Assembly: GCA_015680685.1 (NCBI GenBank)
Contig: MNCI01001077.1
Coordinates: 253,627 to 317,626 of the forward strand
Source: Gnetum montanum
Lineage: Eukaryota > Plantae > Gnetophyta
Direction: 5' to 3'
DNA: 64,000 nt
The notes beneath the pieces are model-generated. The model made no database searches. It was not told where the DNA came from and worked only from the letters and a program-made list of their open reading frames with translations. Positions 17,433-62,213 of this stretch are shown here, one piece after another. Each line of letters starts with the position of its first letter. Within the stretch, counting starts at the first letter, position 1. Both the position numbers and the translations under genes were made by a program.

Positions 17433-17577
17433 ATAATCCTAAGCTTTCTATCATACTTTCCATTTATTTCAATTACTCACATTTCATTGCTACTTTGCAA
17501 ATTTTCACTATGCATATTTACTACAAATAGGTACCTCTTAACTAGACTCTCATTTCATTTTGGCAAGTTGAGCAAGG

Positions 17578-20872: not shown

Positions 20873-21230
20873 CTCGTCCACTACAATGTAAAACTGGAAA
20901 ACAAACGTCCACTATGATGTAAAAATGGTAAAGTAGTCTGCTATGACTATAAACTAGCACAGACAATCTGCTATGAATATAAAATAGCACATACTGTCTA
21001 CCATGACTATAAAATGGCACAAACTATCTACCATAACATAAAAATGGCAAAGCATAGTCTTCTAGGACCTTAAACTAGATCATCCAATGTCAGCTATGAT
21101 GATAAACTAGGACAATGGTCTGCTGGGATCTTAAACTAGTGCAACGGTCTTCTAGGATATTAAACTAGTACACCATGGTATACTGACACCTTAAACTAGC
21201 ACATCATGGTCTACCAGGACCTTAAAATGG
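20873..21230 (+). repeat. Array 3 of ~30-nt hairpin/pseudoknot motif right after the integrase stop (~12 units)
   Basis: Units such as agtc-tgctat-gact-ataaa-ctagca (20935-20959) and ggtc-taccag-gacc-ttaaa. Confidence 0.85.
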
Positions 21231-27810: not shown

Positions 27811-28227
27811 TATCAACCTCTAAGGCTGTGCACTACTTACCTCAACTGAAAAAAAATCACAAAATAGAACAAAATAGGGGAAACTAAATTTTACATTCTT
27901 ATTCAGTTTAAATTGCCTTTAAATAAGCAAATGCATCAATAAGAAAATATCAACTATATCCTAATATGAAGTCACTGCTATAATAGTCAACCCTTTAACT
28001 TCTATAATGGTCGACCCTTCAACTTCTATAATGGCCAACCCTTCAATTTCTATAATGACTGACCCTTCAATTTCTATAATGACCAACCCTTCAACTTCTA
28101 TAATGGCAAACCATTAAACTTATGTAATAGTTGACCATTCAACTTCTAACAACTAAATCCCTAAGGATAGTTTCTAAAGACTAGGACAAACAAAAAAGGC
28201 ATGTTTAATAATTAAACACATTTAACA
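27811..28227 (-). repeat. Copia 3' LTR with ~7 copies of a 24-bp tandem repeat
   Basis: Matches 32315-32761; aacttctataatggtcgacccttc units at ~27975-28150; PPT complement ccttcccgtaaac at 28228. Confidence 0.9.
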
Positions 28228-28279
28228 CCTTCCCGTAAACTAAAAGTTAGTAAATTATCAATTTAACAACAATCATTTA

Positions 28280-31200
28280 ACATGTAGACTCCAAGATACT
28301 TTCTCAGCCTTTGGAATATTGATAACTTAAGGGGTTTAGTTAGAATATCAATGAGTTAATTTTCAGTCTTCCAAAACACCAAATCAATAACACCATCATT
28401 GCATAGATCGAACAAGAAGTGAAATCTCACATTAATATGCTTACTTCTTCCATGTAGCACAAGATTTTTGGATAACTTTATGGTGGAATTGTTGTCACAA
28501 AAATTTGTAGTAATCCACTCTTGGTTGAAATATAGCTCATTAAGAATTTTTCTTAGCCAAATAGCTTGGCAAGCATAAGATGTTGCAGCAATAAATTCAG
28601 CCTTTGTGGTTGAGAATGTAATAATTGATTACTTCTTAGATGGCCATGAAACAACCCCTATGTTCATCATAAAAACATATCTCGAAGTGCTCTTCTTATC
28701 ATCTTGATCTCCTTCATAATCACTATTAGTAAATCCCACAAATTCAGATTTCTTACCTTTCTTGTAAAACAACCCAAAATCTTTAGTCCCATGCAAGTAA
28801 TGAAATATTCTTTTAGTACCCAAGAAATTAATCTTCTTTGGAGACTTCATATATCTATTGATAATACTCATAGCATGCATTATATCAGGTTTGGTTCTAG
28901 TCAAATACATTAGACTCCAAACAATTTTCTTGTAAAGTGTACCCTTGACCTTGCTTCCTTTAGGATCTTTGTTTAGCCTCAAGCCAATCTCAATTGAAGT
29001 GTTTATAGGATTGTAATCCTTCATCTTAAACCTATCCAAAATTTCTCTTGCATACTTCTTTTAAGAAATAATGATTCCAATAGGGGATTACACTACTTCC
29101 ATGCAAAGATAGTAATGCATTTCTCCAATATTAGTCATTTCAAACTCATTCATCATTAACTTCTTCAATTTTTCAAATGAACCACTATCATTGCTAGTGA
29201 AAATAATATCATCAACATATAAACATACAATGAGAATGTTTCCTCCATCAATATTTGTAAAATGTGTATGCTCATATGGACATTTTTGAGATCCCTCCTT
29301 TGAAAAATAGGTATTTATATAACTATACCAAGCTCTTGAAGCTTGTTTTAGTTCATANGGGCACAAAACCATTGGTGTGAAGTGGGATCTTCAAAATAAA
29401 ACTAAAGGAGATTGGTGAAGTTAACAAGTATAAGGTGAAATTGGTGGCTAATGGATACAAGCAAGAATATGGGATTAACTATAAATAATTATTTTCTCCT
29501 ATTTCAAGGCATGATACAATTAGATTGATGATTACATTGGTAGCATAGAATTCATGGCCTATCTTCCAAATGGATGTCAAGTCTACATTCTTGCATGGAG
29601 ACTTGGAGGAACTAGNCTTTCAATGGATTCAATTTCATCCATCATTTTTATTTCTTCATTTTTATTATTTAATAGCACTTTCAAAATTTGTGGGATCATA
29701 ATTTACAAACAAAGCAAAGTGGATGATTGGGTGATCAAATTGGTTAATTCCTGCTACCTCATAATCCATTATCCATAAGGATCTTTCTCAAATATAGTGA
29801 GATTTAGATGCTACTACTATTAGTGAAGTCTTAGCATCCATAGTTCTTGGTGCTTCAACCTTCATTATTTTTGGGATTTCATCCTCCATAGTTCTTGGTG
29901 CTTCAAAGTCTGTAGTTCTAGATTTTGTAGTTTGGGTGTTACAGAGTCTACAGTTTCACTATAGAAAATAATTGAAGTATGTTGTTTCCCCTTCCAATTC
30001 CAACTGTTCTCTTCATTAAACATGACATCTCTACTAGTCACAATCTTCTTTTTCAAAGGATTATACAATTTATATGCTTTGGATACTTCACTTATACTAA
30101 GAAAGACACATTTTTCAGTCTTCTCCTCCAGCTTCTTCCTCTTCTCATCAGGGACATGTGCATAGGTAATGCAACCAAAGATTCTAAAGTGATTCACTAT
30201 TGGTTTCCTTCCACTCTAAGCCTCTTTTGGTATCATGTTTTGAATAGCAAAGGTGGAACTTCTATTCAAAACATGGATGATCCAATTAATAGCCTCCAGC
30301 CAAAAACTCTTTGGAATACTTCCTATTGCCAAGAGGCATCTCATCATATTGAGGATGGTTCTATTTTTCCTCTCTAATACACAAATTTTTATGGTGTATA
30401 AGGGGTTGTGAGATCTCTCTAAATGCCATGATTCTCACAAAAAACATCAAACTCTTTTCAACAATATTCTCCTTCATGATATGTAGGAAGATTCTTAATA
30501 ATCTTTCCAAACTCATTCTCAACATCTTCCTTGAAGCTTTTAAATGCATTAAAAGCTTTATACTTCTTCTACAAAAAATAAACCTAACTTTTTCAAGTAT
30601 AATCATCAATGAACATGATCAAATACCTCTTACCTCCACTTGAAGATGGTTTTATTAGCCCAAAAATGTTAGAGTGAAATAGCTCAAGGACATTCTTTGC
30701 TTTTCATGACTTTCTTAAAAGAATTGAGAACAATGTTTTTTACCAACAATACATTCTTCATAGACTCCAAAAGGAATTGTAATTTGAGGAAGACCAATCA
30801 TCATACTTTTCTATAGTAGAGTCTTTAATCCTCCAAAATTGAAGTGGCCATATCAAAAATGCCAAATTCATGTTAGGTGTTTTACTTCAACCTTTAGGCA
30901 AGATTGAGCACTTTCAATCCACAATGGAAATAATCTATTGGAACTCATTTGAACAACTATAATAGCTCCTCTTGAATGATCATAAATTTCACAAGCATCC
31001 TTCTAAATGATTATTACATAACCCTTCTATTACAATTGACCAACACTTAACAAATTTATTTTCAAATTAGGAACATAAAAAACATTGAAAATTGTTTCTA
31101 CAAAACCATTCTTTGTTCTAATGTTAATATCCCCTTTCCATTAAATTTACAGTAGAACAATCATCAAAAATTACTGTAGAATGAAAAATTTCACCTAAGT

Positions 31201-32195
31201 AAGGAAAATAGGACTTGAATCCACACATATGGTTGTTGTAGCCAGTATCTAGATACCATACATCTAACTAAGACTCTCAGTTGGCTTGAACCACCATCAA
31301 CAAAGGCTCACACTCCTTCTCTTCTATAAAATTTGATTTCTCTTCTTTCTCATTGGGTAGTCTAGTGTAGCATTTAGAATGATAGTGTCTATATTTATGA
31401 CATCTAAAGTAGTCCACCTTAGGTTTGTCAACTTTTCCTCTACCTTTCCCTTGAAATTTATTACTATTCCCTTTGAAATGTCTATTGCCATCTCTATTGC
31501 CTTGATCTCATCTTCCTCTACCTCTTCCTCTTGAGGAATAAGTAAATGTATAATCCTTTAAATCTTGCTCTTTAGAAGTTATTTTTTGATTCATCTTCTA
31601 GTCATGAACTGATAAAGAACTTTGAAGTTCATCAAGGAAGAATGCATCAACATCTTTGGATTCTTCAATTGCACAAACAACATAATCAAACTTGGGGGAT
31701 AGGGAGCATAATATTTTCTCAACAATAATTGCATCCTGCATATTCTCATCATGAAATCACATGTTATCAGCTATTCCCATTATCCTTCCATAAAATCTAG
31801 TAACAAACTTCCCATCTTTCATCTGTAGAGTCTCAAAATCCCTTCTCAAGGCTTAAAGCTATGCATGATTTACTCTTGAAGACCCCTGATATTTCTTCTT
31901 CATAGAATCCTGAATATCGTTGGAAGTTTATTTCTATGAATAGTATTCAAGATAGAACAATCAATTGCTTGAAATAAAAAAATTATTTCCCTTCAAATAT
32001 TATAGCCTTAGTCCCTCTAGCTCCTTTCTTTGTTCATTTGTGAGTTTAACCTCAACTGCGAATCATACTAAACCATCTTCAACAACTTGCCAATACTCCT
32101 TATACTTCAAGAAACCTTCCATCAACATGCTTCAGTGGTCATAGTGGCCATCAAAATGTTGGATGGTAGGCTATACAAAATTTTTTAGAGGCCAT
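28280..32195 (-). pseudogene. Copia gag-pol (decayed)
   Basis: FDGHYDH (gag N-terminus), CHKYRHYHSKC knuckle, WYLDTG..NHMCG (protease), FRIFGCITYAHVPDEKRKKL (INT), LKQASRAW and LYVDDII (RT), GFTNSDY..VSWPSKK (RH). Confidence 0.92.
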
Positions 32196-32303
32196 TTATG
32201 CACTACTATGCTCTTCTCTCTAGCCTCCTAAACTAGGTGCACTATTGTGCTTTTCACTCTAGCCTTATGAACTAGGCTTTCTCTTTAGCTTTCTGAGCTG
32301 AGA

Positions 32304-32313
32304 TTTGATACCA
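32304..32313 (-). other. Copia primer-binding site (tRNA-iMet type)
   Basis: Minus-strand TGGTATCAAA, one base after the 5' LTR end. Confidence 0.8.
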
Positions 32314-32314
32314 C

Positions 32315-32761
32315 TATCAACCTCTAAGGCTATGCACTTCTAGCCTATGCACTGCTATCCTCAATTGAGAAAAAAAAAACAACAAAACAAAACAAAATAG
32401 GGGTAAATAGAGGAAACTAGATTTCACATTTTTATTCAACTAATAATGGCCTTTAAATAGGAAAATAGATCAATGAAAAAATAGCAATTGAATCCTAATA
32501 TGAAGAAACTTCTATAATAATCAACCTTTTAACTTCTATAATAGTCAACCGTTCAATTTCTATAATGGCCAACCCTTCAACTTCTATAATGGTCGACCCT
32601 TCAACTTTTGTAACAATCGATCCTTCAACTTCTATAACAACAAACCCTTCAACTTTTGTAATAGATGGCCATTCAACTTCTAGCAATCAAATACCTAAGG
32701 ATAGTTCCTAAAGACTAGGACAAACAAAAAAGGCATGGTTACCAATTAAACACATTTAACA
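32315..32761 (-). repeat. Copia 5' LTR with 24-bp tandem repeats
   Basis: TGTTAAATGTG...GAGGTTGATA; ORF 32495-32686 is only the translated repeat. Confidence 0.9.
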
Positions 32762-33199: not shown

Positions 33200-35880
33200 A
33201 AATTTTTTGATTTCACAAATATTATATACATGCTTTGAGAAGAAATGGGATTTATGAACATTTTTCAAATACAAATTTCTATTCTATAGAAATTGAAACT
33301 TCTCATAGAAGTTAAAACTTCTTATGTTAGTTATAACAAGATCCCCTTAATATTTATAACTCTTCCTAATTTTGTAATTACCAAAAAGACACTTGTTAAC
33401 TATGGCTTGAATTTTTCATAACTTCTTATAGAAGTTATAACTTCTTATGGTAGTTATGAGTTAACATCCTAGATATTTGTAATTTACCTTAATCTTCCAT
33501 GATGATTGTAACTATCCAAAAACCACTATAAAAATGGCTCCAAGGATAGAATTAAAAAGGATGGATGAATAGAGGGGGTTTTAGGGAAGAAGATCAAAAA
33601 GAAATATATTGAAGAATATAAAGCAAGGCTTGCTAAAGGAATAAATTCAGCTACTTTTTTTTAATCCTGTGAGTTCCTTTTGTATCCCATTTTGTCTTAG
33701 CTACTTAGTTAATGGTTTAGATAGTATTATTCTTGGAATTTAATTTTGGGATTTTCTGATCACTCTTATAGCTTTGTTCTTTGTGCAGCACTAGACTTCT
33801 ATTCGATTTGCCATATAAGAGCTTATGTTATCTTAGAAAAGCATTTTGAGCAATTTAATAGTAATATCTTTATGAAATTGACTATTTGAGTCTAGAGGAT
33901 CTGGAAAATCTTTGATACTTTGAGATAACTAAAATAGCTTCATTTTTTAAAAGTTTATTCCCTTGATATTTCAATCTTGAAATTGTCAATTTTTTCTAAA
34001 GGCTCTATTATTTGTAATTCTCCACAACTATTAACTAGACAAATAAAAGCCTGTAATTTTTCATTTACAAAGTGTTTTGGTAGTCAAATAAGAGTTTCTT
34101 TTATGAAATTTCTTGTTGAGCTTAAAGGGTTTGGACAATTCATAATATTTAGATTGAATTGGAATAGCTTTACTGCAAACTATTTCCTAATGTCAATTTA
34201 TCTCACTTAAATGGTTGATATTTCATAAAAATCAACCTTTCTTTTCTTTTCTTTTCATAAATCCATTGAATCTCACTCTATTTCTAGTTTTCTTTTGGAA
34301 ATTTCTTTCTGGGAGAAATTAGAAGTAGATTTTGATAGAATTGTGCTCAAACATTTTTATGAAATTTTTTTTGTTTTAAGAAACATACTATAGGAACTAC
34401 ATAGACTAAATGACTTAACAAAATAAAAATCTTTAATGACTCACAGTATTTGACAAGGTTAGCTAAATTTTTGTTATAATAGCTAGTTACAATTTCTTAC
34501 ACAAACCGAACCATTTCAACAATCACAATAGCAAACACACATTTATGTTTAGTTTGCTCTATAATCACTAAGTTTATTTAGAGGTATCTAGGCCTTAGTG
34601 TTTCTAGAGACTATTAAGCACATAAACCATGTTCAAAGGGGTACCTTTGTTTTCCATGAACCTAGTCGTGTGACTGAAGCTGAAATGTTAGTAGCTGGAA
34701 ACAACCACCAATGGGTTGCAATTTTGGTTTCAAGGCTCTAAATAGAATTCTTGAAGCTTTGAAAGAAAATTTACTCTTTGTTTCATGTGCATTTTACTTT
34801 TTCTTATGGTATACTTGAGGGGCAAGATGGCACTCCCAAAAGCCAAACATCTATGATGAAGAAGCCCAAAACCTCATAGCCTCAAGATTTTACTTGTTTG
34901 ACCTCATTACAACCTCTAAAATCCATTTACCCCATTCTTCCATGCTAGAGTGACTCATCTAGCATGGGAATAGTGGGGAGACCTTAAGTTCCCTTAAACA
35001 ACCTTCAAACAAGCTTGAAATTAGCTAGAAACTTGCAAAATCAAAGTCTATAGTGCTAGGGGCCTAGAAACCTAGTAAAAGTGCCCCTAAATCACTCTAA
35101 CTTTATAAAATAAGTTTCTCCCTATTTTTCCATTTTTAGGATATTATTTATACCATGGAAAAAGGGTGGAAGTCATTTTGATAACTATTGACACTCAAAT
35201 TACCTCAAATTGCCTTAGAATGAAGCTAGAAGATGCACAAGTTCTACATCTAGACTCCAATTTCCTATTTGATCATATTTTTCCTTCTTTTGGCTTTGAT
35301 TTTTGTTCTCCATGCTAAATCACATCTTTTCCACACTGGCCAGCATGGAAACAAGTGGGGAAAGCTTCAGAACCTATTTTTTGACCTTTGTAGACCTCCA
35401 AAATGCTTAATTTTATGGGATACGATCATGCAATACCTTTTGAAGGTCCTCAAACCTAAATTTTGGACCTTCAAACATCCCAAAACATATTTAACTTAGT
35501 CTCCATACTAAGGGTCCTTATTTTCATCCTAAGCCTTGGATGAAAGCCTCAAAGCACTCGATTTTTGGGTCTAAACAACCTAGAAATAGCTCTAATTGAT
35601 GCCTAAACTTACCTAATAGCATTGTAGACTCAAAACATAGCCTGATAAGGCCTAAAACTAGCAAAAATCTAACCACTTTTGGCCTATATTAACCAAATTT
35701 ATGACATATAATCTATTTTTCTTAATATTTTCCTTATTACATAATGTGTAAGCTTGATTTTGGACTTATGTTGCACTAATGACATGGTTGACCTTCTATA
35801 GCTTGATATAGCCTTATATGTTTGTTGCTTGTCTTGTTATAGCTCTATTTACATTTTTCTGGTCTTTACATGGTATCAAA
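33200..35880. mobile_element. Unresolved LTR-like remnants, ending in CA plus a Met-type PBS at 35871
   Basis: GGTCTTTACA|TGGTATCAAA at 35861-35880; repeated AACTTCTTATAGAAGTT palindromic motifs at ~33295-33450; no coding signal. Confidence 0.35.
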
Positions 35881-35924
35881 TAGTGGGGTTTGACCTTCTC
35901 TAATAGCTATTTGACACCATATGA

Positions 35925-36010
35925 CAATGCCTTGCTAAACGTCTTAAACTAGCATCATAGTCCACCAAGATTATAAACTAGCATCATGGCCTATTAAGGA
36001 CCAAAGCTAG
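35925..36010 (+). repeat. Remnant of the pre-RT hairpin array of element B
   Basis: ttaaactagca; agtc-caccaa-gatt-ataaa-ctagca. Confidence 0.6.
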
Positions 36011-36244
36011 AAAAATGATGGCATTTATTGACCATTTTTAGCTTTATAATTCCCTTTTTTTGACCTTTATGTGATCTTTTTTCAGATCTATTTCACTTTA
36101 CTAAATTCACCTTATCTCACTAATGACCTTCGATGGCCTTGATTACATTAAAGTTGTATATGTTTTATGGCATTTTAACATTATTTATTAACTTTTAACT
36201 AGGTTCCACTTCATATGATTTTGGTTTATATGTATTATCAAAGT

Positions 36245-38603
36245 ATGAGTACCTAGGAGCAAATTAGTTTTCCTTTGTATTTAGATGGACCTCACGATGA
36301 TAGTAAATGATGTATCAACCCTGATTGCCTAGATCTTGATCCTGAGAGTCTTGTAGACCACATAGCCATAATAGAGAAACCTTTAGAATGTCTTGAAATC
36401 CTAGTCCAAACACTTGACTTAGAAGTAGGATACATAGTTGAAGACCCTCTAGTTGAGGTTTCTATCACAACATGGTGTTGAGAAAAAACCCCTTAAACTA
36501 AGTTCCTCACTAGAGCCTCAATGTGTCCAAGATATCATCAAAGTCTTACAAAATAGCATTAAGGCATTGTCCTAGTCATATGAAGATATGCTAGGCCTAG
36601 ATCCACATCTAGTCTAGCACAACATCATATTGGATCCTAGCATTAGACCAGTTAAGCAAAAACCATGCAAGATTAGACATAATTTGGCTTTGGTAGTTCG
36701 CAATGAAATATCAAACCTCTATCAAGAAAGTTTCATTAGGGCTATTGATTATGCAGAATGGGTATCTAACATAGTGGTAGTCCCTATGAAAAATGAAAGT
36801 ATCTATATTTGCATTGATTTTCAAGGCCTAAATAAAGCAACAATCAAGGATGACTTCCCTTTTTGCAGTACTTATCAACTTATTGATAGAATAGCTGAAC
36901 ATGCCTTGTTGTCCTTTATAGATGGATTCTTAGGATATAACCAAATTAGGATCAACCTCAAGCACCAACTTATCATAACCTTTATGACCACATGGGGTAC
37001 TTTTTGTTATAGCATGATGCCTTTTGGCCTTAAGAATGCTGGAGCAACATACCAAAGAGCCATGACTTGTAACTTCAGTGATCACATGTTAAGTTTGCTT
37101 ACTGATTACATAGATGACATAACTATGAAGTCTAAGATAGCCAATGACAATGCTAATGACCTATATCTTATGCTTAAACAATGCCTCAAATATAAGCTTA
37201 GTATCAATCCTAAGAACTATGTCTTTGGTGTCAAGACTAGTAAGATGCTTGGCTTTCTAGTATCTAAAGTAGGGATACACATAGATCATAATAATATTAA
37301 GGCCATATCCAAATTTTCAACACATACCAATCCTAAGAAGATTTAGGAATTACAATATGGATTACAATTTATTTGTATGTTTATCGCTAGGCTTACGGAA
37401 AAGTTATAGCTCATGCAATAATTGCTTAAGAAAGGAGTTCACTATGAGTGAACAACTCAAAGCCAAAAGGACTTTAAAAACCTTAAGGAAGAGTTGACAC
37501 AACTATTGATAATCTATCCTCTACAAGATGGTAAACCATTTCATATTTATCTATCCATCTCTAATACATTCATTACCTTTCTAGTTTGTCATAAATGTGA
37601 TGATGGAGTAGAAATGCATATATACTACCTTAGCCATGCATTAGCTACCCACAAGACTTGATACACTGAGGTGGAGAAGTATTTTCTAGCACTAGTCTTC
37701 TCTTTGAAGAAATGGAAAAACTACATCTTCGAAAGCCAAGTCAATGTAATTTCCAAGGATAATGTACATAGAGTCATAATGATCAACATCTATAAAAGTA
37801 GCTATATAGCTTGATGGAAAGCCACAACTGTGAATTTCAACCTCCATTATGTCTCTAAATCATCAACAAAAGGTTAAGTTATAGCCATACAACTCATAGT
37901 TTCACCTATTTATAGCCATAGATCCTAAGTTCCTTCATGAATGCATTAACACAATTAACCAAGTGCCCAAGGCTTATGAGGTAGCCATGAACTTTGACAA
38001 AGCTTCAATCGCCCATGGGGCTAGTGCTACTACCATTGTAACATTCTCATATGGTGAAATCCAATCCTTTGTCTATTTTTAGATGTTTTAATGTACCAAC
38101 AACATAGAAAAATATGAGGATCTAATAAGAGGGATGATGATAGCTCATGACCTAGGAATTAGATGCCAAGCCATCAAAGGTGATTCACAACTCATGGTTA
38201 ACCAAGTAACCAAAGTCTATGCATGAAAAGTTAAGCACTTATAACCTTACTATGATCTAGGAAAGCAATTACTATAGTAATTCAGACATTGATGTTCAAT
38301 ACCTACTCAAAAATAAAAATTCCATAGTTGATGCAATTCCAATGTTAGCCCTTATTGTGGCACCCAATGTGTTTAGCAACTTCCCCACCTTAACCATGGA
38401 CTATGCTACTCCCATCACACAAAACACTGAGGATACCTTTGTGGTCATATTTCATACTGTTCCTCCTAAGGAATGGTATGATGATATCAAATTTTACATT
38501 ATTCATGGTAAATCCTCACAAGACTTGACTACTACTTAGAAGGATGTCATACACAATTGATCAAAGCAATATGTGATCATAGGTGGTAACACATTATGTC
38601 AAT
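36245..38603 (+). pseudogene. Element B: Tat RT-RH-aRH and start of integrase, cut by an LTR insertion
   Basis: ORF 36630-37346 (DDFPF, SFIDGF, MPFGLKNAGATYQRAM, YIDDI); aRH CTNNIEKYEDL at ~38090; ends ...GGNTLC at 38600. Confidence 0.9.
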
Positions 38604-42069: not shown

Positions 42070-42400
42070 AAATCTAGTTTAAGGTCTTGGTAGACCGTGT
42101 GCTGGTTTAGGGTCCTAGAGGATTTCTGTGCTTGTTTAAGGTCCCAGTAGACTGTACATGCTAGTTTAACATCATAGCGGATGTGTCATGCCAGTTTATA
42201 GTCATAGCAGACTAGTTGTGCTAGTTTTACATCAAAGTAGATGGTTGTCACTAGTTTAACATAATAGCAGATGCACTGTGCCAATTTATACTCATAGCAG
42301 ACTAGCTATGCTAGTTTTACATCGTAGCAGATGATCGTCACTAGTTTAATGTCGTAGCGAACACTACTTGTTGCTGTCGGTTTAACATTGTAGCGGATGT
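42070..42400 (-). repeat. Element C array 3 (post-integrase hairpin/pseudoknot units, ~11)
   Basis: Minus-strand agtc-tgctat-gact-ataaa-ctggca and catc-tgctac-gatg-taaaa-ctagca, among others. Confidence 0.85.
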
Positions 42401-46014: not shown

Positions 46015-46325
46015 TAAAATTTACTAGTTTTAAGTCATGACAAACTACTATGGCATGGAGATGTAGAGCTACTAAAATAGAAAATGTAAAACTATCGATG
46101 TGAGAATGTGAAGTTGCTAAGGAATGCAAAAATGCTAATGTGAAAATGTGAAACTGCTAGGTTAGCATCATTGCAAACTACGAATGTATAACAGATCAAA
46201 ACTGCTAGTTTAAGGTCTTCTCAGACCAGTGACAAGAGTGGAAAACTATAATAAAAATGCTAGTTTAAGGTCTTTTCAGACTGGTAACGTTACAACTAGG
46301 CTAGGGTTGCTAGTTTAAGGTATTT
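46015..46325 (-). repeat. Element C array 2 (pre-RT)
   Basis: Plus-strand gctagtttaaggtc units at ~46205, 46259 and 46309, with weaker copies. Confidence 0.75.
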
Positions 46326-46645
46326 TTGAACAAATATGATTGAAAATATATTTTTTCATTTTTTGGGAAAGGAAGTAATTAGCTTGGAGAGTGTCAAGGT
46401 TTTAATTCCAATAGTGCTACGATGTTGTGGTGAGCAAGCTACGCTATATGGCACACTCCACATTAAATGAAGAGAGAGAGTAGCAAGTTTCACTCTTTCA
46501 CCATTACAGCCATAAATAGGGATTAAACCATGGTAAGCTTGTCATTCTCACCTTAAGAGCGCAGAGCCCATATTTGGAGCACAAATCTATTTCGAAGCAC
46601 GGAGCGATTGTACTAACAGCAAGCAAGGTGATTTTTTGCATAGTG

Positions 46646-49600
46646 ATGAGGAAAAATCTACAAATAGGATGATGGCTCCAAGAAGGAATGTACTGACTTG
46701 GTGCTTGCTAAGGTTGAGGAGGTGAAGAAAACCTAGGGTGTGTGACACAAGCGCACGTTGTGGCGCGGGAGGACACGTCATTGATCCGGTAGGCTACTAT
46801 GCTTCCTCTATTTTTTTGTGATTCTATTATCATTTTTTTGTGTTTCTTTCTCCTTTCATTTTTTATTCTAGTCTTAGTCATTTATGTTTTCTATCATCAC
46901 ATTCTTTTGGCCTTTGCATTACCAATGTTTATCATTTTGGTAGTGGCAGATGCATAAATTCTATGCTATCATTGCATGTAAGGTCGTTTAAATCGCCACC
47001 ACTGCGGTTTTCATAACCGTGGGGGTTTGAATAGTTTAATTTACTTTGCTTTCAAATGGAATAGTGTAAGACCCTCAAGAGGTTTGGCCATGTGTGACGT
47101 GGCAGTGCAAAACATCTTCTATTGAGGCGTATTGTTAACCACCCTGTTAGGGTTAATTTCTTTGTTGCTACGCTAGGCTATTTTTGCTACACTATCGTTT
47201 TCATGTTCTTGTTGCGCTATGTGAAAAAATGGGGTTATGCTACGCTATATTTATGAACTGCTAGGTATTGCTATGTTGTGTGCACATTGCACTTAAACAT
47301 GATGCTAACACTTGCTAGTTGTATTATGCAAGATGGGGCTAAGGCCAATTCTGATTGTCTTAAAAATTGTAGGGGTCCTGTGTCATGTAAGAAAACCTAT
47401 GGCCAATGCTCCTCCTCCCCAAATACATGTGGGAGAGTGGGGGGCTTGGTTCAGGAAAGAAGCATAGGAGTTCCTACAATACCTCCTTGAACCCTTCAGT
47501 GTGATCATTTGGTCATACCCAGAGGAGGAAGAGGCAGCTATCATAACCGAAGCCATATTTCGTGGGGCAAGCTAGGGAATCCTGAGGTTTTTGATAGATG
47601 GAGAAATCATGAGTAGGGAGGGAGAAAGCTCCAGTCAATGCCCAATAGGGTTAAGGAGTTTTTTCTAGATCTAAGATATGCATGAATATAGCTACTACCA
47701 TTCTTACAACACATTTTTTGTTGCACATTATATGGAAATATGCTTCCAAAACCCACCAGGAACTATTTACTGTGCTGGTGAATGAGTTTTGTAGCCTTGT
47801 TCTGTTGTGTTGCATGATGCTGGCCATATTGGCCAAATGCTAACAATGTGTTTTTGTTACCAGGTTTTACATCAACAAGGAAGGGATTCATGACTGACCG
47901 AGTCTACTGACTACAACACGTATAGCCCTACAGGAGTTCTCTTCTACTGAGAACCTGGAGGCAGGTGTGATTGGTCAATGCAAGGGTGAATACCACACCT
48001 ATCCACACCTATTCCCCATTACCTATGATCCGTTCAAGGGGTCTAGTTGGCTAGATGAGGGACGGGCACAACCCTTCAAACTGATCACCGTTGATCAAGT
48101 TCTAGTTAGTCTTCCACTATTCCCATCACCGTACAAACCTGGCAGGCTAAATAGTAAGTGTTGCATGCTCAAGTACCTTTGCAATCTTTGGATTTTCTAT
48201 GTTTTTGTGCTAAGTATTTCTTGTGAAAACTGTTATAGGGGTGAAGAAGCCTTAGGAGGTGACGATGGTAACCACCAAGATACATGAGGCAAACATCTAC
48301 TTCAAGTATGGAGAAGTAGATACAAGCCAACGCTAGATAAACGGTGCAGCTTTTGGATTCCTTAGTCTAGAATATCCAAAAGGTTGGGCTTATGGATCTA
48401 TTCCTGGCCACTAATCTAAGCATTCCTACTACTGAGATGCTCTCCTTGATCAACTCCTTTTTCGACAAGGTGAGCCACTTTTGCACGCGCATATAGGGAG
48501 TGTGGGTGATCATTGAAATCAATGACCAGCTGTTCACGGACCTCTTCGGTGTCTCTGCTGATGGCATCCTCATAGGTTCAAAGGGCAAGAAGGAGATGAC
48601 CCTTCAGAAGAAGGAAATTAAGGAGTAGTTAGGGATTACTAAGGAACGAAAGGGGCTCCCCATGGAGAAGCTTAATGAAGGACCCGCCAAGGAGATTTAC
48701 CCTATCTTCCATGCTCGTGCATTCCCCTAGCTACTTTCCGAAGGGAAGGTGCTTGGGATTGAGCAAGCTTGGATAATGCATGAGGTCATGGAAGAGGGGA
48801 CCCATTACAATTGGGCTAGGTTTCTATGTGAAGGCTTGCAGACAAAAATCTTGGAACTCCATAAGAAATCAGAGTCTTGTTCCAATATATATTATGTCTT
48901 TTACACAGCCTATGTGAAGCATTTCATGGAGTTTCTAGTTGTTCACAAGAATGGAGCCTGGGTTATGCGAAATCACAACTAGATTTCCAAACCATGGATC
49001 TACCAGATCCTCTGGACCACCCAAGCCCAAGATCCCCTAGAAATAATTGAGAAGTCGTTCTTTGTGACGACTAAGGATCTGGTAGCCTGCAAATTTCATG
49101 ACCAAGATAGCATAGGAGACACGCCCCCTGTTGTAGCTGGTAGTGTGTTACCGGGCAGACATCTCATAGCCAAGACTATGGCCAAAAAGTTGCAATGGAA
49201 GAGGCCTCCTTCAGCTAAGTAAACCCTTTGCATGGAGGAAGAGAAGGGGTAGAGACTACAGCTTAAGCTGCAGAGGAAACAACCCTCCATTGGTAAACAA
49301 TTTTTTTTAATGTATACTTTGTTATTTTCTGCTATGCTATGTCACGCTAGGCTGCGTAGCATAGCGTAGCACCTACTTGAAGCTAACTTTTTTTGGACCA
49401 ATGCAAACATGCTTCTTGAATGGAAGAGGAAGAAGAAGAAGAAGAAGAAGGCGATGAAGAGGTGTCTACCCCTAAGATGGGGGCGATGAATAAAGACATA
49501 GAGGCCCCTGTCTCAGAAGAAAGGGCCCTGGTCAAGAAGAAAGGAGCTCCTACTGGTAAGGCAAGGGCTCTTGTCATTAGGTAGAATCCTCCTACTAATG

Positions 49601-51132
49601 AGGAGGGAATTTTTAGAGATGAATAAGAGTCTTGTTTGGGTAAGAAAGATGCTGGTATCTTGAAAGAAAATACACCAATGAATGAAGAAGTGGCCTGTAC
49701 AGACTTGGCAGGGACTTCTACCAAGGCTGTCCTCATTGTCTTGTATCAGTAGAAAGGGAGACTGCAATCGGACGCTGGTGAGTTCGGTAATGTGTCTGCC
49801 TTATCATAGTCTATTTCAGCTATTGCTAATATGTTTAGTTATGTAATAGGTGCCACTGTTAATGCTGCAGGACCCCCTCTGACTTGTGTAGAACCATGGG
49901 CCAAGATCCCTGATAAATTTACGTTCATGCATGGAGTTGTTGATGACATGATTAGCCACCTTCAGCAAGTGGACCTTGATGTGCATAAGTAGCAGTGTTA
50001 GGTGCTCTCATGTTTCCATGCTAGAATCTCATGAGCTTGCTAATCTTGCTATGCTAATGCGATTACTACACTCTTTGTGTCATGGAAGCCTCTCGGCTCA
50101 AATGGGACCTGGCACGGCCTTTGAAAGTTGGTGTCGTGCCTACATTCCTACCTAAAGTGACTAAGGTGTCTCATCATGCATACGACAAGGCTTGAGAATG
50201 CACTTTTCACTCGGCACACTCCTTGTGGGAGTGTAGGCACGTCAACGAGGACCTGTGGAAATGGGTCCAAAGAGCTAAAAAAAAGGAGGCCGACTTGAGA
50301 ACCAAGGTGGAGGATCTTAAGTTGAGGAACGAGTTCCTCATAGGCTGTGGCACTAATAATAAGGACTAGCACACAACTGTAATAGATTATTCCATATTTT
50401 GAATAGTCATGTGTCAGAACGTTGAAACCACTGGTAAAATAATAAAACAGTGGATGAAAATGGACTTGTTAGCCCAGAAGTGTTAAGATTTGAAAGATTT
50501 CAGTGTGAAGGTTTATGAATTGGGGAAATCCTAGAAAAACCAAAAACACATGTATAAACTTGAAAATTCCACCCATCATAAATTTTACAGGAACACTGGT
50601 GTGGAGGAATTTACGTATAAAGCATTCATAAATGCCATTGATGCTTTGGAGGCCTATGCCAAGTTCAAAGAGTAGGTAAATGTTATAGAATCTCCTAACT
50701 GGAAAGTGGACCTTCCCAGAGGAAAGATCACAACCATATCCTTTTACCTGGGACCACCAAGGTGGACAACCACTGAAAGGGAGAGAGCTGCTATGGACGT
50801 TGAACCAAGCAATAGGCATTGGGTGGACATCACGGTAGAGGAGGTCTGGCATCGCCTCGGGCTCGCTTTATACTAGATATCCTTCGAGATGGATGCAGGT
50901 CCTTCTCAAGTTAGTTGATTTTTACTGTATTAATTCTTATGCTCTGTTGTAGATTGCGTGTGTTTCTTTAGATGACCACTTCATTCCTATGATGTAGGCT
51001 CCAGATGAGAGTGCAGTGCTCGTAGAGAGAAGGAATGAAGAATCAATAGAGGACAACGTTAATGAAGCTGATGCAAAAGGAGATGATGTAGAAACAAATG
51101 ATTAAGATAATGCAAATAGGGACAACCCATGA
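46646..51132 (+). pseudogene. Element C antisense multi-exon accessory gene (decayed)
   Basis: ORFs 47967-48287 and 48749-48982 (YNWARFL) and a poly-Glu tract at ~49425; introns 46789-46949, ~47780-47863, 48154-48238, 49293-~49425 and 50910-50997; stop at 51130. Confidence 0.8.
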
Positions 51133-51315
51133 CAACATGGGATTTCTTTTGAAGTTTCAAATTTTTGTAAAAAAAAATTAATAATTTCACGAACATTGTC
51201 CAAAAGGCAAAAGTTTTGAATAAAGAAGAGAATTTAGGAAAAGAAATTAATTTTGCATTAACTTGTGCATTGTCTATGTGCTACGTTTTGGTGTAAAATT
51301 TTCATGCTTTCATGT

Positions 51316-51535
51316 GCTAGTTTTAGGCTATTTCGGGCCATTACTAGTTTTAGGCCATTTCGGGCTCTTGCTAATTTTAGGCTATTTCAAGCCATTGCTA
51401 GTTTTAGGCCGTTTTAGGCCATAGCTAGTTTTCGACTATTTCGGGCCTCAGCTAGTTTTAGGCCATATCAGGCCATTGCTAGTTTTAGGCCATTTTAGGC
51501 CTTTGCATAGCATAGTTTTAGGTCGTTTCAGGCCA
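51316..51535 (-). repeat. Element C array 1 (post-protease, ~8 units of ~27 nt)
   Basis: Plus-strand gctagttttaggccatttcgggcc repeats. Confidence 0.9.
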
Positions 51536-55599: not shown

Positions 55600-57400
55600 G
55601 CACATCATCTGGTTCCAACCTCACACTGTTACATGTGTATATTGAGGTACCAGATGACCCTCCTGTCATGATGGACACGGATTCATCAATCCCCTCAGGA
55701 GCATCTTAGGACTCAGCTGTTTCGAACAAATGGTTAATCCATGGACAAGATAGTTGAGTTCGATCCCGTAGAACATATTTATTGTCTGTGCGAACAAAGA
55801 TAGCTAATGAAGAATGCAAATTTAAAATGGGACTACGCCTTAACATTTGAGTGTAATCGCACTATCTCCTTATGAAGGCCTGACAACAAAAATTGAGCCC
55901 AATTATAACACATCCTAATTTCTAGGATAGTTCGCATGATGCACACAACTTAAACACCAAGACTCCTCACCTGGGATAGGGATTTAGGAAACACTCGTGC
56001 CCTGAACAGGGGATATAATTCATTAACTTCCTCAACCTTTGAGTTCCCTTGCATATGGAATCCCTTGGAGCCCTTAGTAATTCCTAACCAATCCTCTAGC
56101 TCACGTACCATATTAAGCTCTTTCTAAGCCCTATCCAAAACTACATTTATGCCATCTTCTGGTACACCGAACAGGTTTGAAAAGAATTCAGCTGATAGAT
56201 GGAAAAATATTTTGACACCCTTAATATGGGTGTTGTAGTAGGAGATGGACTTGTCGAATGAATCCATGATCCTGATCATTTCAGCTCTCGATACATCAGG
56301 ACTCGGGCTTGTAAAGAGCTCCTTAAGGCTAGCATCATCTAAACAACAGACAATAGATGATGGGGCATGGATGCACAACCATTTCAGTGTCTTGCTAATC
56401 TCCCCAAACTTCATCGATAGGGTACTCTCTGTTTGTCTTGTCGTAATAGGGTCTCCGCCAGGAGGGACGTCAACTTTAAATATAATTTGAAACCTTCACA
56501 TCAGTATGACCACCAGCAGTAGGACAAACACACTTGAGCATCTACGAAATACTATCACTTACCTTTAGTTGTGGACTTTGAGGTGCTACCCAAGTCAGAA
56601 TCACGAGGGAAAATTGGTCCATTATGCGACCAATCTCCATGCAGCCACCCACAAGCCGTGTATTGTGTGAATGCTCTAGAAAATTATTTATGGAAATAGA
56701 CAATATCATCCTTGGTTTGAGCTAATATAGCTTCATGAAGGGTGGGACCTGCCATAAATGTCTCTAGAGCAGTATGAGCCAAGGCAAGTCCATCATCATT
56801 GATGCATGTCCCATCTTGGGTAACTTGGGGCCTGCAAAAGAATGGTCGTCAAAATAGAAGCAAATGCCAAATGATAAAAACCAAAAACAACAAGCTAAAA
56901 AATCTTACCTCTCTACCCGGTACACTGTGCCAGGAGGGTTCTGAAATAACATGTGTGCACATGCAACTAGAAACAAGGTGTTGTTGAGATAATCACACCC
57001 TCGTGGCAATAGGTCCCACATGCACGCTAACGGGTGAGTAGATCTGGGCCCGCCAGAGGGACTATCCTTGATCATAAGCAGCCCCTTGTCAATGTCTACC
57101 ATAAAAATTATGATGTCCCCCGAAGCTCCTGGAAACATAGCCTTAAGCACGCTCCGTGCCACTTGTTTGCTCAGATGCGACTAGACCACCACCTTAAATC
57201 TATCCAGATGAAGACGAGGAATTCACATGCCCCTTCCCTAAACCATACCCCATTGTTGTTAATGGTTAGATCAGGGGTAGGTTCATCAGTCTCAAGGGGC
57301 CCGAACCATGCTAGTACCCCAACTAGCTCAACTACCAGGAGGAAAGGCTCAGTTTCACTGCAAGTAACCAAAAAGCCACGATAAATCAGCCATACATGAA
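55600..57400 (-). pseudogene. Element D antisense accessory gene, 5' half (divergent homologue)
   Basis: KFGE...FSNLFGVP (56124-56414), LEDWLGITK, YNWAQFL; introns 56832-56908 (GTAAGA..TTGCAG) and ~56474-56562 (GTAAGT..AG). Confidence 0.8.
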
Positions 57401-57459
57401 AATGAGATGAACGAACAAAATTCCATGTTGCAGGCCAACACTTCAAAAAATTAAGAAAC

Positions 57460-58480
57460 TATTTACGCTCGATGTATATGCTATCAACAAACTGAAAATA
57501 CTCAACATATATGCTACCTAAAAAAAAATAAAACTGTTCACGCTCAGCGTATACGCTGTGAAAACCACCAGCGTATATGCTGTGCAAACAGTTTACACTG
57601 TACGCTGTAAAAAACTGCCAGCGTATATGCTTTGAAAATAGTTTATGCTAAACGCTATGAAAATAGTTTATGCTATAGGGTGTGCAAACATGTCAGTGTA
57701 TACACTGTGAAAAGTTCATGCTGTACGCTGTGAAAACAGTCAGCGTATACACTGTGAAAATTATTTACGCTACATACTGATAAAATTGTCTATGCTGTAC
57801 ATTGTCAAAACCCTCTATGCTACACACTCTTCAAACTGTCTACGTTGTACACTGAGGAAACCTTCTACGCTCAGCGTACAGACCCTATACGCTATAGAGA
57901 CCCTCTACACTACAGATCTATGCTAAGCGTACAGACGCTATATGCTGTACACACCCTCTACGCTAACTGTCTACGCTACCAAAACCCTCTACGCCATGAA
58001 AACTGTCTACGCTACGAAACTTTCTACACCAAATAACATGTATAGATGAAAATAAGTAACAGAGGCAAGATTAGAGCCTAACTATGTGACAATCTAGGCC
58101 ACGATGGAACCCTTGGCCTAGGCAGACACTGCAGAATGGCCTCGCTTTTCTTCGCGAAAGTCAAGTTAGGCCCCTTCCTCCCCTAGCCTTCTACCTCCTT
58201 GACCTTGCCCATTTCAACATCCTTTACGCTACAACTGATAGGTTCTATGCTGAGGTCTGAGTCTGCATGCCGAGCTGAATCCTCTATGCTGAATTGGAGC
58301 CTATACACTCACACCAAAGTTTTAAGCCTCTACGCTCATGCTTACGCTGGGGTTTGAGTTTGTACGCTTACGCTGGAGTTTGAGCCTCTACGTTTATGTT
58401 AGGTTTGGTGGTTTACGCTTACGCTCAAGGTTTACACTTACGCTGAAGATTTACACTTACACTAAAGGTTTATGCTCACA
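57460..58480. repeat. Dense TACGCT-motif repeat region
   Basis: Dozens of tacgct/tatgct/tacact and agcgta motifs in short degenerate units. Confidence 0.8.
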
Positions 58481-58775
58481 CTCCGAATCGCTTCAAGTTC
58501 GGTGCTTCTAAGTGACAGCCTTACACTATATATAGCATCGCTTCGGTCCCATCGCCGCAGCTGCCTTTGATTATTTTAATGTTTTTAATAGTTTATCAAT
58601 TTTATTTAAAAATTGTTAAAAATACAAAGCACAAAAGAGAATATATAAAACAAAGTGAACACTACCACACTCTAATTTCCTCGTAACCCAACTTCAGATG
58701 CCCACACTAAACATTTTGGTGCAATCTCTCTGATGCAAAATATACGGCGAATAGGCATCATCAAATCACCCATAT

Positions 58776-59097
58776 AGCCTGGTATGGCCTTAAACTACCA
58801 TGACAACCTACTATGGCCTTAAATTGCCATATTCGGTTCACATGATGGCCTAGTATGACCTTAAATTGCCATGATGGCCTGGTAAGGTCTTAAACTGCCA
58901 CATACATCCCACACATGGCCCGGTATGGCCTTAAACTGCCAAGACGGTCTGGTATGGCCTTAAACTGCCATGACGGCCCGTTAAGGCCTTAAACTATCAC
59001 AAACTACCCCATACAGCCCGGTAAGGCCTTAAACTACCACATTCGGCCTGGTAAGGCCTTAAACTGCCATGCGTCTTGGTGCGACGATAAACCACCA
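58776..59097 (+). repeat. Element D pre-RT hairpin/pseudoknot array (~10 units)
   Basis: ggcc-yggtaw-ggcc-ttaaa-ctrcca units; last unit cgtc-ttggtgc-gacg-ataaa-ccacca. Confidence 0.9.
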
Positions 59098-59190
59098 TCA
59101 TGCATGTACACATGATTTACGTTGCCAGGGAACATGAAACAACACTTATTAGCTCATTCTACCCTCTGTTTATTGGCAGGAACAAGCCTG

Positions 59191-62100
59191 ATGTATTTTT
59201 AGCATTTATCCACACCCTTGATCATCGATGGACCATATGGAAAAATCACAAGAGAAATCAACATAAACTCCATCAGCTTAGGTACATCAACGGAAGACAC
59301 ACTCATAGGCTCGACACAACCAAACGATAGATAACTACAAAGGTATGACAAGATCCCTCGACATAGAAGTCGATAGTATCACTGATGACCCATTGACTAA
59401 AACCCCCATCGTTATGCCTGATGGTGAAACCAAAATATTAAAATTGAGTGCACTATTGCAACCTCAACTGGCCAATGATGTAGAAGAGGTGATTCGAAAA
59501 AACATGAAAGCATTCACTTGGTCATACACAGACATGCTCGGGTTGGATCCTCGAATCATCAAGCATAATATTATCCTTGATCCAAAATTGAGGCCAGTGA
59601 AGCAAAACGCATGAAAGGTTAAACCTGAGGTGGCATTGGCAGTTCGCAATGAGATTGCCAAGCTTTATCAGGTAGGTTTTACTTAGGCTGTCGATTACGC
59701 TGATTGGGTATCCAACATGGTCATTGTCCTGAAAAAGAATGGAAGCATTTGCTTATGCATTGACTTCCAGGATCTAAATGTTGCAACCATAAAAGATGAT
59801 TTTCTCCTACCCAGCATTGATTAGCTTGTTGACACGACCGCTGGGCATGCCCTATTATCTTTTATGGATGGCTTCTTGGGGTATAACCAGATATGCATTA
59901 ACCTAGAGAATTAGCTCCAGACTACCTTTATGACACCATGGAGAACCTTTTGTTACACAATGATGCCCTTCGGTCTCAAGAACACTGGGGCCACATATCA
60001 AATGGCCATGACATTCATTTTTAACGATTACAAGCTACACTCGCTCAATGACTATGTCGATGATATCGTGGTTAAATTGAAGACATCAAAACAACATGTA
60101 CAAGACCTTGACTTGGTGCTAAAACATTGTTTAAAATATGAGTTCACACTTAATCCAAAGAAATGCATCTTCGGAGTCAAGACAGGAAAAATTCTTGGAT
60201 TCATAGCCTCGAAAGTAGGGATATGAGTAGACCCTAATAAAGTTAAGGCCATAACAAACTTAAAACCACCTAGCAACCTTACCGAACTCTGAGGTCTACA
60301 AGGTAGATTACAGTTCATCAGGCATTTCATAGAAAAACTAACGGACAAATTAAAATCTATGAACCACTTGCTATGCAAGAACATCCATTTTGAATGGACT
60401 CCATAGTGCGAGGAAGCATTTGACAATATTAAAAAAGCACTTATCCGACTACCCACGGTTTATCCACCTAAAAATGATAAACCTTTTTACATATACCTTG
60501 CCACTTCAGATTCGTCAATCACATCCATGCTTTGCCAAAAACAAGATGATGGAACCGAAGTCCCTGTCTACTACCTAAGCCATGCATTAGTAGCCCATGA
60601 GAAGAAGTATAACGAGATGGAGAGGTCATGTTTAGCCCTGGTATTTTCCTTAAATAAATGGCAACATTACCTCTTCCATAACCAAGTTAACATAATCTGC
60701 AAGGATAATGTGCTTAGAGCCATCACAGAAAACATTTACGAGATATGTAAAATAGCCTGTTGGAAAGCCATGATAGCTGAGTTTGACCTACACTACATAG
60801 CGCAATCATCAGTTAAGGGTCAAGCCATAGCAAATCAAATGACCGCATCACCAACGCACGATCAAGCAACGATAGAGCCAGAATTCCCTGACGAAAATGT
60901 AAGAGCAATAGACATACTACCCAATGACTATGATGCTATTTTGAACTTTGATGGGGCATCCACCTCTCGAGAGGGAAGTGCTACCGCCATCATCACCTAT
61001 CCCTCTGAGGAGATTTGACCCTTTGCTTATCATTTCAACTTTCACTGTACCAACAACATAGCAGAGTATGAAGGTCTCCTTAGAGGTCTTATGGCAGCAC
61101 TAGCTTCAAACATCACACAACTAGTGGTCAAGGGACACTCACAACTAGTTTTAAACCAAGTCACAGATATTTATACATGCAAAGCGCAACATTTACAACC
61201 ATACTGTGACTTGGCAAAACACTTAATGAGGTAATTCGAAAACATTGATGTGCAACACATCTCTAGAAATGATAATACCATCGCAGATGCACTAGCCACC
61301 CTAGCATTAAACATATCCCCTGACATGTGCCATACGTTGCCAAGCTCCATAATTAGCTATGCAAAACCCATAACCGATACACTTGATACATTGCCAATTG
61401 CATCCATTAGTATAACACACATGATAGAATGGTATGACGACATAAAAGAGTACCTTCTACATGGTGAAACATCGCGACATCTAACGAATGCACAAAAAGA
61501 TGTGGTACGAGAGCTTTCTAAGCAATATGCACTAGTAGGGGACACCTTGTGTCGTCGATACTATGAAAGCATATTGCTAACATGTGTTAGTAGCACTGAT
61601 GCCCAAACCATAGTTGATCAAGTACATGATGGACTATGCGGAGGACACATAGCACCAAAAGAAATGGCAACGAAAATAAGATGCTTAGGCTATTATTGGC
61701 CACATATGGAGTATGACTATCTCTCCAAGGCTAAAATATGTAGTACCTATCAAAGACACAGTAATCTGATCCATGTCCCACCAAATGAGTTGCATATAGC
61801 ACAAATCACATGACCCTTTCAAAAGTGGGGGTTGGACCTTATTGGACCAATAACACCTTCATCTTCTACAGGGCATAGTTTCATCATAACCGCGAAAGAA
61901 TATTTCACGAAGTGGGTAGAAGCTATTCCCGTTTGAAAAACCACATCTAAACACGTATGCAACTTCATTCTTGAAAACATTGTGACCCGGTTTGGCATCC
62001 CCATAGCCATCATCACTGACAATGGGCAACAATTCAGTAATGCCAAAACCAAAAATTTATGTGAAAGTCTGGGGATCAAAAACTCATTTTCATCCCCGTA

Positions 62101-62213
62101 CTACCCTCAGAGCAATGGGCAAGTAGAGGCCACAAACAAAACCATCATTACAATACTTAAAAGGATGCTTACCCAAAGCAAGAGAAGATGGCACGAACAG
62201 CTGGTATACGTAT
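59191..62213 (+). pseudogene. Element D RT-RH-aRH-INT, cut in integrase by element E
   Basis: ORFs 59345-59614, 59930-60226 (YVDD), 60527-61018 (RH, NFDGAS), 61250-61813 and 61982- (YYPQSNGQVEATNK). Confidence 0.93.

Follow-up and report, generated by a model that had tools for sequence, protein, structure and literature searches.

Results

Tat-type retrotransposons of the window

The window, the whole 64,000-nucleotide stretch of Gnetum montanum DNA analysed here, holds four decayed copies of Tat-type Ty3/gypsy retrotransposons, all four of them dead. Copy A (internal region at about 9–21.3 kb), the fragment D (about 35.6–38.6 kb) and copy C lie on the plus strand, and copy B (about 42–54 kb) lies on the minus strand. 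Copy C carries the array that is our subject (58776–59097, plus strand) and is interrupted near 62206 (62.2 kb) by another repeat. Pfam places reverse transcriptase (RT), RNase H (RH), an additional RNase H (aRH) and integrase (INT) in that order in copies A and C, within broken pol frames at 17776–20855 (plus strand; integrase stop codon at 20853–20855) and 59309–62205 (plus strand; RVT_1, RT_RNaseH, RVT_3, Integrase_H2C2 and rve). Copy D retains RT at 36618–37346 (plus strand). Weak Pfam matches to protease lie about 6 kb upstream of RT in copies A and B; the remnant in copy A (11063–11371, plus strand) matches Asp_protease_2 with an E-value of 0.0011, below the curated cut-off.

An aRH between RH and INT, and a protease set apart from pol, fit the Ogre/Retand layout of the Tat clade. 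In the available text of PMC4408406 and PMC6317226, Tat lineages IV–VI (Ogre/Retand) keep gag-protease separate from pol, in Ogre by a spliced intron. By analogy, the 5–6 kb spacer between protease and RT is likely to be an Ogre-like intron. A pyrimidine-rich stretch ending in AG between the array and RT of copy C (59150–59179, plus strand) is a possible 3' splice site; splice sites were judged by eye only, and the four-way alignment before RT is poor. Copies A and B are 69–74% identical throughout. The nearest proteins to the window's elements are plant retroelement proteins at 31–36% identity, and CpG is depleted in the window (observed/expected 0.30–0.55).

Several other features surround the arrays. 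The protease–RT spacers of copies A, B and C contain decayed antisense coding-like sequence (11950–16900, minus strand; 46500–51300, plus strand; 55600–58500, minus strand), and Pfam detected no family in any of 15 frames taken from these antisense spacers and from the gag region read through its stops. A TATA-like motif, identified by eye, lies on the antisense strand (near 16865, 46515 and 58530), some 200–250 nt upstream of the pre-RT array; a scan for sigma-70 promoters and terminators, of a type ill-suited to a eukaryote, remained at chance level. A repeat beginning TGAAACACC interrupts or borders copies A, D, B and C (22598, 38604, 54166 and 62206) and may be one LTR family inserted several times. 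At 27823–32761 (minus strand) there is a decayed Ty1/copia element (RVT_2, SH3_retrovirus) flanked by two 81%-identical repeats, each of which contains a 24-nt tandem array. The pol start of copy A carries a recent 79-nt tandem duplication (17582–17778; 2.5 copies, 99% identical). Upstream of the copy C array, 57545–58027 and 58340–58472 hold 18–50-nt tandem repeats rich in TACGCT/AGCGTA, which do not match the unit described below.

Arrays of a 25-nt unit at three fixed sites

The copy C array comprises ten units on the plus strand and ends about 130 nt before the pol reading frame. Nine are hexaloop units (starting at 58776, 58805, 58847, 58876, 58917, 58946, 58975, 59015 and 59045) and the tenth is a heptaloop unit (59072–59097). 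The hexaloop unit is 25 nt long: a 4-bp stem, a 6-nt loop, a 5-nt WWAAA linker and a 6-nt tail. The heptaloop unit lacks the G at loop position 2, and in it a G–C replaces the otherwise constant A–U loop–tail pair. The first-pass annotation of this DNA had described a 4-bp stem, a 6–7-nt loop, WWAAA and a complementary tail, and the ten units bear that description out; the stems and loop–tail pairs that it listed, including those at 20935 and 20995, are all present where it placed them.

Hexaloop units were collected in regions picked from earlier hits, anchoring on the loop ends, linker and tail and leaving the outer stem and the extended loop–tail pairs free. This gave 55 units in eight arrays, all of them on the sense strand of the elements and outside Pfam-supported ORFs. 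The arrays occupy three fixed sites: after protease (four units in A, seven in B), before RT (seven in A, nine in C, three each in B and D) and after integrase (11 each in A and B).

In copy A (plus strand) the post-protease array lies at 11828–11942 (4 units with a 27-nt period and the loop CGAAAU, without extended loop–tail pairing), seven dispersed units lie before RT at 17054–17434, and the post-integrase array lies at 20875–21232 (11 units, with a twelfth at 21177 found by a covariance model). In copy B (minus strand) the corresponding arrays are at 51315–51534 (7 units with a 27-nt period, an eighth at 51369–51393 by covariance model), 46022–46332 (3 units, a fourth at 46308–46332 by covariance model) and 42072–42399 (11 units). 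Copy D has three units before RT at 35639–36012 (plus strand). Both post-integrase arrays and the copy C array are of a type with Watson–Crick loop–tail pairing. The post-integrase arrays begin 19 nt (copy A) and 20 nt (copy B) past the stop codon and end ahead of a purine tract, which in copy A lies at about 21299–21307. The pre-RT position is retained in copies A, B, C and D despite a pol DNA identity of 63–66% between A/B, C and D.

The unit fits a viral Xrn1-resistant RNA

The coremin element (xrRNA-C) of RNA viruses has rules that come from mutagenesis. As set out in the available text of PMC6546385 and PMC10520033, these are a 4-bp hairpin with a closing C–G or U–A pair, a loop YGAD, YGNNAD or longer, and a spacer UUAAACUAC of about 9 nt in which A16–A20 are essential and U13U14 are free, with a second hairpin next. 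In a Watson–Crick variant of coremin (xrRNA-WCC) the loop pairs with the spacer, as PMC10321173 presents it. The portions of PMC6546385, PMC10520033 and PMC10321173 at hand make the second hairpin, directly downstream, necessary for resistance in both viral types, and two extra nucleotides before it nearly abolish the resistance of the viral motif (PMC6546385, same portion). Plant XRN4 in yeast yields the same 5' end at coremin, according to the part of PMC5869530 available. The loop CGAAAU, which is the loop of our post-protease arrays, is Xrn1-resistant in a viral context in the available text of PMC10520033.

Set against these rules, the closing pair is C–G in all nine hexaloop units of the copy C array and agrees in 45 of the 55 units overall, with hairpins within the permitted 3–5 bp. 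The loop reads YGNNAD in seven of the nine and in 24 of 55, a count that rises to 46 of 55 once G>A decay and any final letter are tolerated. The spacer has AACUA in 36 of 55 units. In the copy C array three of the nine have AACUA, two of which match UUAAACUAC exactly, and four have AACUG, a form present in viral contigs too. At the spacer positions where tested viral substitutions were fatal, four of these nine units carry G (not among the substitutions tested) and two carry U. The placement is also that of xrRNA-C, being non-coding, on the sense strand and after stops or between ORFs (19–20 nt past the integrase stop in copies A and B). As in xrRNA-WCC, at least three antiparallel loop–spacer pairs with covariation occur in 31 units, and do not occur in the other 24; the units depart from the G at the first loop position and the G–C pair next to the stem that also characterize xrRNA-WCC.

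A second hairpin follows the spacer in 30 of the 55 window units; the same test finds one at 63 of 150 random positions and in 37 of 47 viral units. For eight of the nine hexaloop units of the copy C array, it is the sequence of the following units that supplies this hairpin. The next unit begins at least 4 nt after the spacer; tandem viral units (contigs L001–L004) are also spaced by a few nucleotides.

Applying the published coremin rules to the window yields 13 units, all 13 on the sense strand of the element, against 0–1 in each of 12 dinucleotide shuffles. A relaxed coremin scan yields 42 units against 5–14 in shuffles. By contrast, a loose descriptor (hairpin, AAA linker and loop–tail pairing) finds 33 against 14–36 in ten shuffles, which is chance level, so the signal lies in the conserved letters and their clustering and not in pairing potential alone. 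The first-pass annotation had called for an Rfam search and a covariance model. Rfam gave no match at the gathering score anywhere in the window, and no ribozyme family matched either; the covariance model, built from the window units, detects viral and Ty3/gypsy units elsewhere (see below).

Because the unit matches a named and mutationally mapped viral element, the motif is known and its host is new. Judged by its letters, the unit fits the coremin Xrn1-resistant RNA and is not a new motif, and the window units are likely to work like coremin xrRNA. The annotation had proposed a multimerised structured RNA that it did not know from LTR retrotransposons, with nuclease blocking among the four functions it offered; the sense-strand multimer is supported, but the motif itself was already known as coremin.

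The hairpin covaries between arrays and the loop–tail helix splits by array

Across the 55 units, 85.9% of 220 stem 1 cells are paired, compared with 12–45% in slid controls. Changes on both sides are found in 41 cells against 15.3 in shuffles (none of 500 shuffles was as high), a count that overstates independent changes because the units are related by tandem duplication. Stem position 1–14 has four pair types, and both-side changes occur at three of the four stem pairs. Changes of the C>T/G>A type account for 22 of the 31 unpaired stem cells.

The loop–tail helix is formed in 56.4% of cells across all units, and it splits by array. Extended loop–tail pairing is found in 31 of 55 units and is confined to three of the eight arrays (both post-integrase arrays and the copy C array). 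In these 31 units, pair 8–22 is formed in 30, pair 7–23 in 28 (18.3 expected; C–G in 21, G–C in 7) and pair 9–21 in 27. In the other 24, A9–U21 is formed in every unit, 8–22 in three, 7–23 in eight and 6–24 in 11. Pair 10–20 is formed in nine of 55 units and in none of the nine of the copy C array. The loop opens with a pyrimidine (C or U) in 54 of 55 units.

Within the nine hexaloop units of the copy C array no pair is changed on both sides, and the covariation is between arrays. On our reading of the alignment, the loop–tail helix within the window rests on about four independent double changes. The first-pass claim that stem and loop–tail pairs covary is thus strongly upheld for the hairpin between arrays but finds nothing within those nine units. 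The full pseudoknot that it proposed agrees with the 31 units with extended pairing, but is not universal. Its argument from G–U pairs carries weight at pair 8–22 (U–G in 11 and C–A in one of the 31 units) but little for stem 1, where G–U pairs (13 cells) are accompanied by A–C/C–A mismatches (22 cells), a mixture expected from decay by deamination.

Relatives in viral contigs and metagenomes

A two-unit pattern matched four contigs in IMG/VR. A noda-like virus contig has four units from about 13 nt past the RdRp stop codon, including loop–tail covariation; a tombus-like virus and another RdRp contig each have two units between ORFs; and the fourth contig is unannotated. Patterns fixing only the loop, closing pair and tail of the copy C array matched 60 IMG/VR stretches, representing 41 distinct contexts. 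All four stem pairs, three of which the pattern did not require, are present in 16 of the 41, in 12 stem types; we estimate the full-stem expectation at about 5% for even composition. Eleven of the 16 full-stem contexts lie less than 100 nt from the stop of a long ORF, and among the 25 lacking a full stem, nine likewise lie close to a stop. RdRp families match six of the 17 upstream ORFs tested (one weakly); one other is a phage protein and ten gave no match. One viral contig (L149) has a stem and loop identical to those of unit 58917. Scanning IMG/VR for the variant seen in copies A and B (CYGCUAW/CUAGC) returned a single match, without a paired stem.

A published-type pattern gave 60 distinct contexts, in which a loop G7 is accompanied by a pyrimidine at tail position 24 in eight of nine cases, against 14 of 51 otherwise (Fisher p 0.0009, with the relatedness of contexts uncorrected). 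This association, which supports the loop–tail register, comes from data that were not used to set that register.

A metagenome scan gave 46 stretches, 14 of which were parsed for units. Most of the others have no paired stem and resemble chance matches or bacterial DNA, and no plant Tat relative was demonstrated among the metagenome matches. In one Ty3/gypsy contig (L095), three units and then a purine tract come after an intact integrase that has SH3 and chromodomain. In a second (L119), the stretch from integrase to the purine tract contains three octaloop units, and in a further contig (L124) the units lie behind a gag ORF. L095 and L119 are unrelated to the window's elements, yet the units recur in the same 3' UTR placement. 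Five contigs from a single metagenome sample (L090, L112, L119 on its minus strand, L123 and L128) share one repeat family with about 20–45 units per contig, in hexaloop and octaloop Watson–Crick forms with rich stem covariation; L128 has two copies of an LTR-like repeat. L095, L119, L124 and this one-sample family appear to be of fungal origin.

With the covariance model built from the window units, a tombus-like virus unit reaches 32.5 bits, a higher score than most of the training units have. The model finds units in L095, L119, L121 and L124 and in five of six viral twins tested, misses L001 and L147, and matches none of 12 bacterial-type control loci at E≤1. Rfam gave five matches at E≤1 on 12 other loci, none of which covers a unit.

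The exact viral hexaloop coremin pattern is also present in non-coding DNA of many phage-like contigs of 12–107 kb (L005, L007, L008, L020–L029, L045–L047 and others; match at 2001–2022). In L008 the pattern abuts the 5' side of an Rfam GP20-b RNA, and the L007 region matches Lactobacillus phages. RNase J of Firmicutes is a 5'–3' nuclease, and one idea is that the patterns in phage contigs could be a roadblock to it. The tombus-like virus contig L002 has a weak Rfam GIR1 match (1150–1332, minus strand; 39.5 bits against a gathering score of 100) between its tandem units and the coat gene. In L106, coremin-like units (1559–1622, minus strand) precede a cytochrome P450 ORF that shares their strand, possibly a cellular or transposon-derived case.

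RNA reads and predicted folding

None of the indexed RNA runs contains the stretch itself. Raw reads of same-species runs map across the array, mostly from copies less than 90% alike, indicating that relatives of the element are transcribed across the array. The fragment libraries, ill-suited to show either and with reads from diverged copies, have no pile-up of read starts at the array and no splice joints. Depth is higher over pol than over the spacer; we did not count this as evidence because coding DNA recruits the reads of relatives better. Among the 40 best-supported of 121 read variants, nine lie inside units, bearing in mind that short reads may be placed on the wrong unit of a repeat. 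Eight of the nine keep hairpin pairs, loop letters or central loop–tail pairs. The in-unit variants include U–A/U–G exchange at pair 8–22 in both directions, and one at 59091 (A>T, 17 of 37 reads in X1) that hits the A-rich linker. Nested folding, a method without pseudoknots, predicts pairing between units, which it favours because GGCC is self-complementary.

Discussion

We consider it probable that the arrays would act as roadblocks to 5'–3' exoribonucleases (XRN4, possibly nuclear XRN2/3) and to scanning ribosomes. From its letters and pairs, the hexaloop unit is predicted to fold as a compact pseudoknot. The A-rich linker would run along the minor groove of the 4-bp hairpin and loop A9 would pair with tail U21, with up to four more loop–tail pairs in the Watson–Crick variant. 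On RNA that has been decapped or cleaved, XRN would halt immediately 5' of the first folded unit, and repetition of units would raise the chance of a stall. The expected products are a stable 3' non-coding fragment, a pol-bearing fragment and a protected spacer RNA. The arrays after protease and before RT would bracket the likely-intron spacer, giving stable spacer or pol-bearing fragments, and on unspliced RNA they may block ribosome scanning into pol. Such roadblocks would be placed as in RNA viruses, past stop codons and between ORFs. Small pseudoknots of this size need not resist Xrn1; in the available text of PMC10321173, resistance was absent from the BWYV knot and from 15 of the 17 frameshifting hits.

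The fold might instead be kept only as a translation roadblock that stops 40S scanning past the gag-protease and integrase stops or towards pol, with XRN not stalled. A coremin in a 5' UTR cut luciferase about five-fold, hexaloops as much or more (PMC10520033, in part), and the Watson–Crick variant impedes ribosomes without the second hairpin that it needs against Xrn1 (PMC10321173, in part); that hairpin is doubtful in the window units, and the arrays do follow stop codons and precede the pol frame. However, the post-integrase arrays have no downstream ORF to guard, and the letters retained are those needed for Xrn1 resistance, though in the available text of PMC10520033 both functions mostly share them. 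We regard a purely translational role as unlikely. Binding of Gag or a host protein (for packaging, dimerisation, nuclear export of unspliced RNA or control of protease–RT spacer splicing) would suit multimeric sites, two of the arrays bracket the likely intron, and other LTR elements use structured export elements with pseudoknots, according to the part of PMC12786077 available. Yet the same unit lies past the stops of RNA-virus contigs (noda-, tombus- and others), which lack both Gag and a nuclear phase. Packaging signals usually lie near the 5' LTR, which no array here adjoins, and we think such binding sites similarly unlikely.

Tandem arrays are frequent in the non-coding regions of non-chromoviruses (PMC6317226, in part), and neutral minisatellites of the non-coding parts of Tat/Ogre elements could acquire pairing from palindromic seeds copied in tandem. 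The near-identical copies within an array, the lack of double changes in the nine hexaloop units of copy C and the chance-level result of the loose descriptor are what such copying would give; the four pair types at 1–14 with both-side changes at three of four stem pairs, the strict sense-strand use, the three fixed positions across diverged families, the letter-level match to a tested viral motif and the recurrence in unrelated elements are not, and neutrality is quite improbable. Least of all do we credit a role as stimulators of –1 frameshifting or read-through, which is very improbable. Coremin and its Watson–Crick variant resemble the BWYV knot and give 13–30% frameshifting behind a slippery site in vitro (PMC10321173, in part), but a frameshift pseudoknot would sit in an open frame, 5–9 nt behind a slippery heptamer. 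The arrays lie outside reading frames and no such heptamer was found in 58701–59100, and we rejected a frameshift signal by position. For the window arrays we found no support for frameshifting, self-cleavage or packaging.

What is new here is the host class, an LTR retrotransposon, and the unit variant; the coremin kind is known. The xrRNA, coremin and retrotransposon literature that we searched (titles and abstract openings, mainly open-access) reports no such motif in a retrotransposon, and in the literature found xrRNAs of coremin type have so far been described from RNA viruses only. The string 'transpos' does not occur in PMC10520033 or PMC5869530, and a 2025 review of plant LTR host factors (PMC12786077) mentions Xrn1 only for yeast Ty1 in its available text. 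In the parts available of the 2023 papers (PMC10520033, PMC10321173) no coremin structure was solved and the pseudoknot was hypothetical; our literature search found no later structure. The units predict specific coremin pairs (A9–U21, 8–22, 7–23 and G6–Y24), which makes this open structural question testable.

If the roadblock reading is true, chromosomal xrRNA arrays would assign a role to one class of UTR tandem repeats and would offer a clue to RNA handling in Tat elements whose gag-protease and pol are split; elements in high copy number could sequester XRN4. The 25-nt unit is easy to assay and could serve as a small RNA stabiliser. More speculatively, and with less than even confidence, we propose that coremin-type xrRNAs may be a widespread, overlooked cis-element of Ty3/gypsy elements in plants and fungi. 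Programmed XRN stalling would yield subgenomic RNAs, one a 3' fragment without coding sequence and another that carries pol; some UTR 'minisatellites' would be stacked nuclease roadblocks, and the Watson–Crick variants would give the coremin pairing register.

The window's elements share with Ogre/Retand (Tat lineages IV–VI) the RT–RH–aRH–INT order, a protease split from pol and non-coding tandem arrays; the available text of PMC4408406 and PMC6317226 assigns those repeats no structure or function. They differ in their 5–6 kb protease–RT spacer and in nearest proteins that are only 31–36% identical. The luteoviral P1–P2 frameshift pseudoknots (BWYV, PLRV) have the size, topology and adenosine-rich linker of our units; as presented in part of PMC10321173, they are coding, lie behind a slippery site and are not Xrn1-resistant, whereas our units lie in non-coding sequence and have the coremin letters. 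Class 3 plant-virus xrRNA (xrRNA-LT; PMC12397905, in part) shares the presumed function and a hairpin loop paired with a 3' tail, but is about 54 nt long with a longer two-helix stem and solved structures, compared with 25 nt here. In xrRNA-WCC (PMC10321173, in part), antiparallel pairing of the loop with the spacer end produces a small H-type pseudoknot with an A-rich linker, as predicted for our units. By its text description, xrRNA-WCC has tetraloops starting with G and three pairs, whereas the loops here are pyrimidine-first, of 6–7 nt, with four to five pairs.

The closest known system is the hexaloop form of coremin. In the available text of PMC6546385, PMC10520033 and PMC5869530 it has the same 4-bp hairpin closed by C–G, YGNNAD loop and UUAAACUAC-type spacer, and it too lies on the sense strand just past stop codons or between ORFs, sometimes repeated. 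The units here often have a spacer ending in CUAGC or CUGCC, and a dedicated second hairpin is not evident. Their host is an LTR retrotransposon and not an RNA virus, and they form arrays of 3–12 units in three places.
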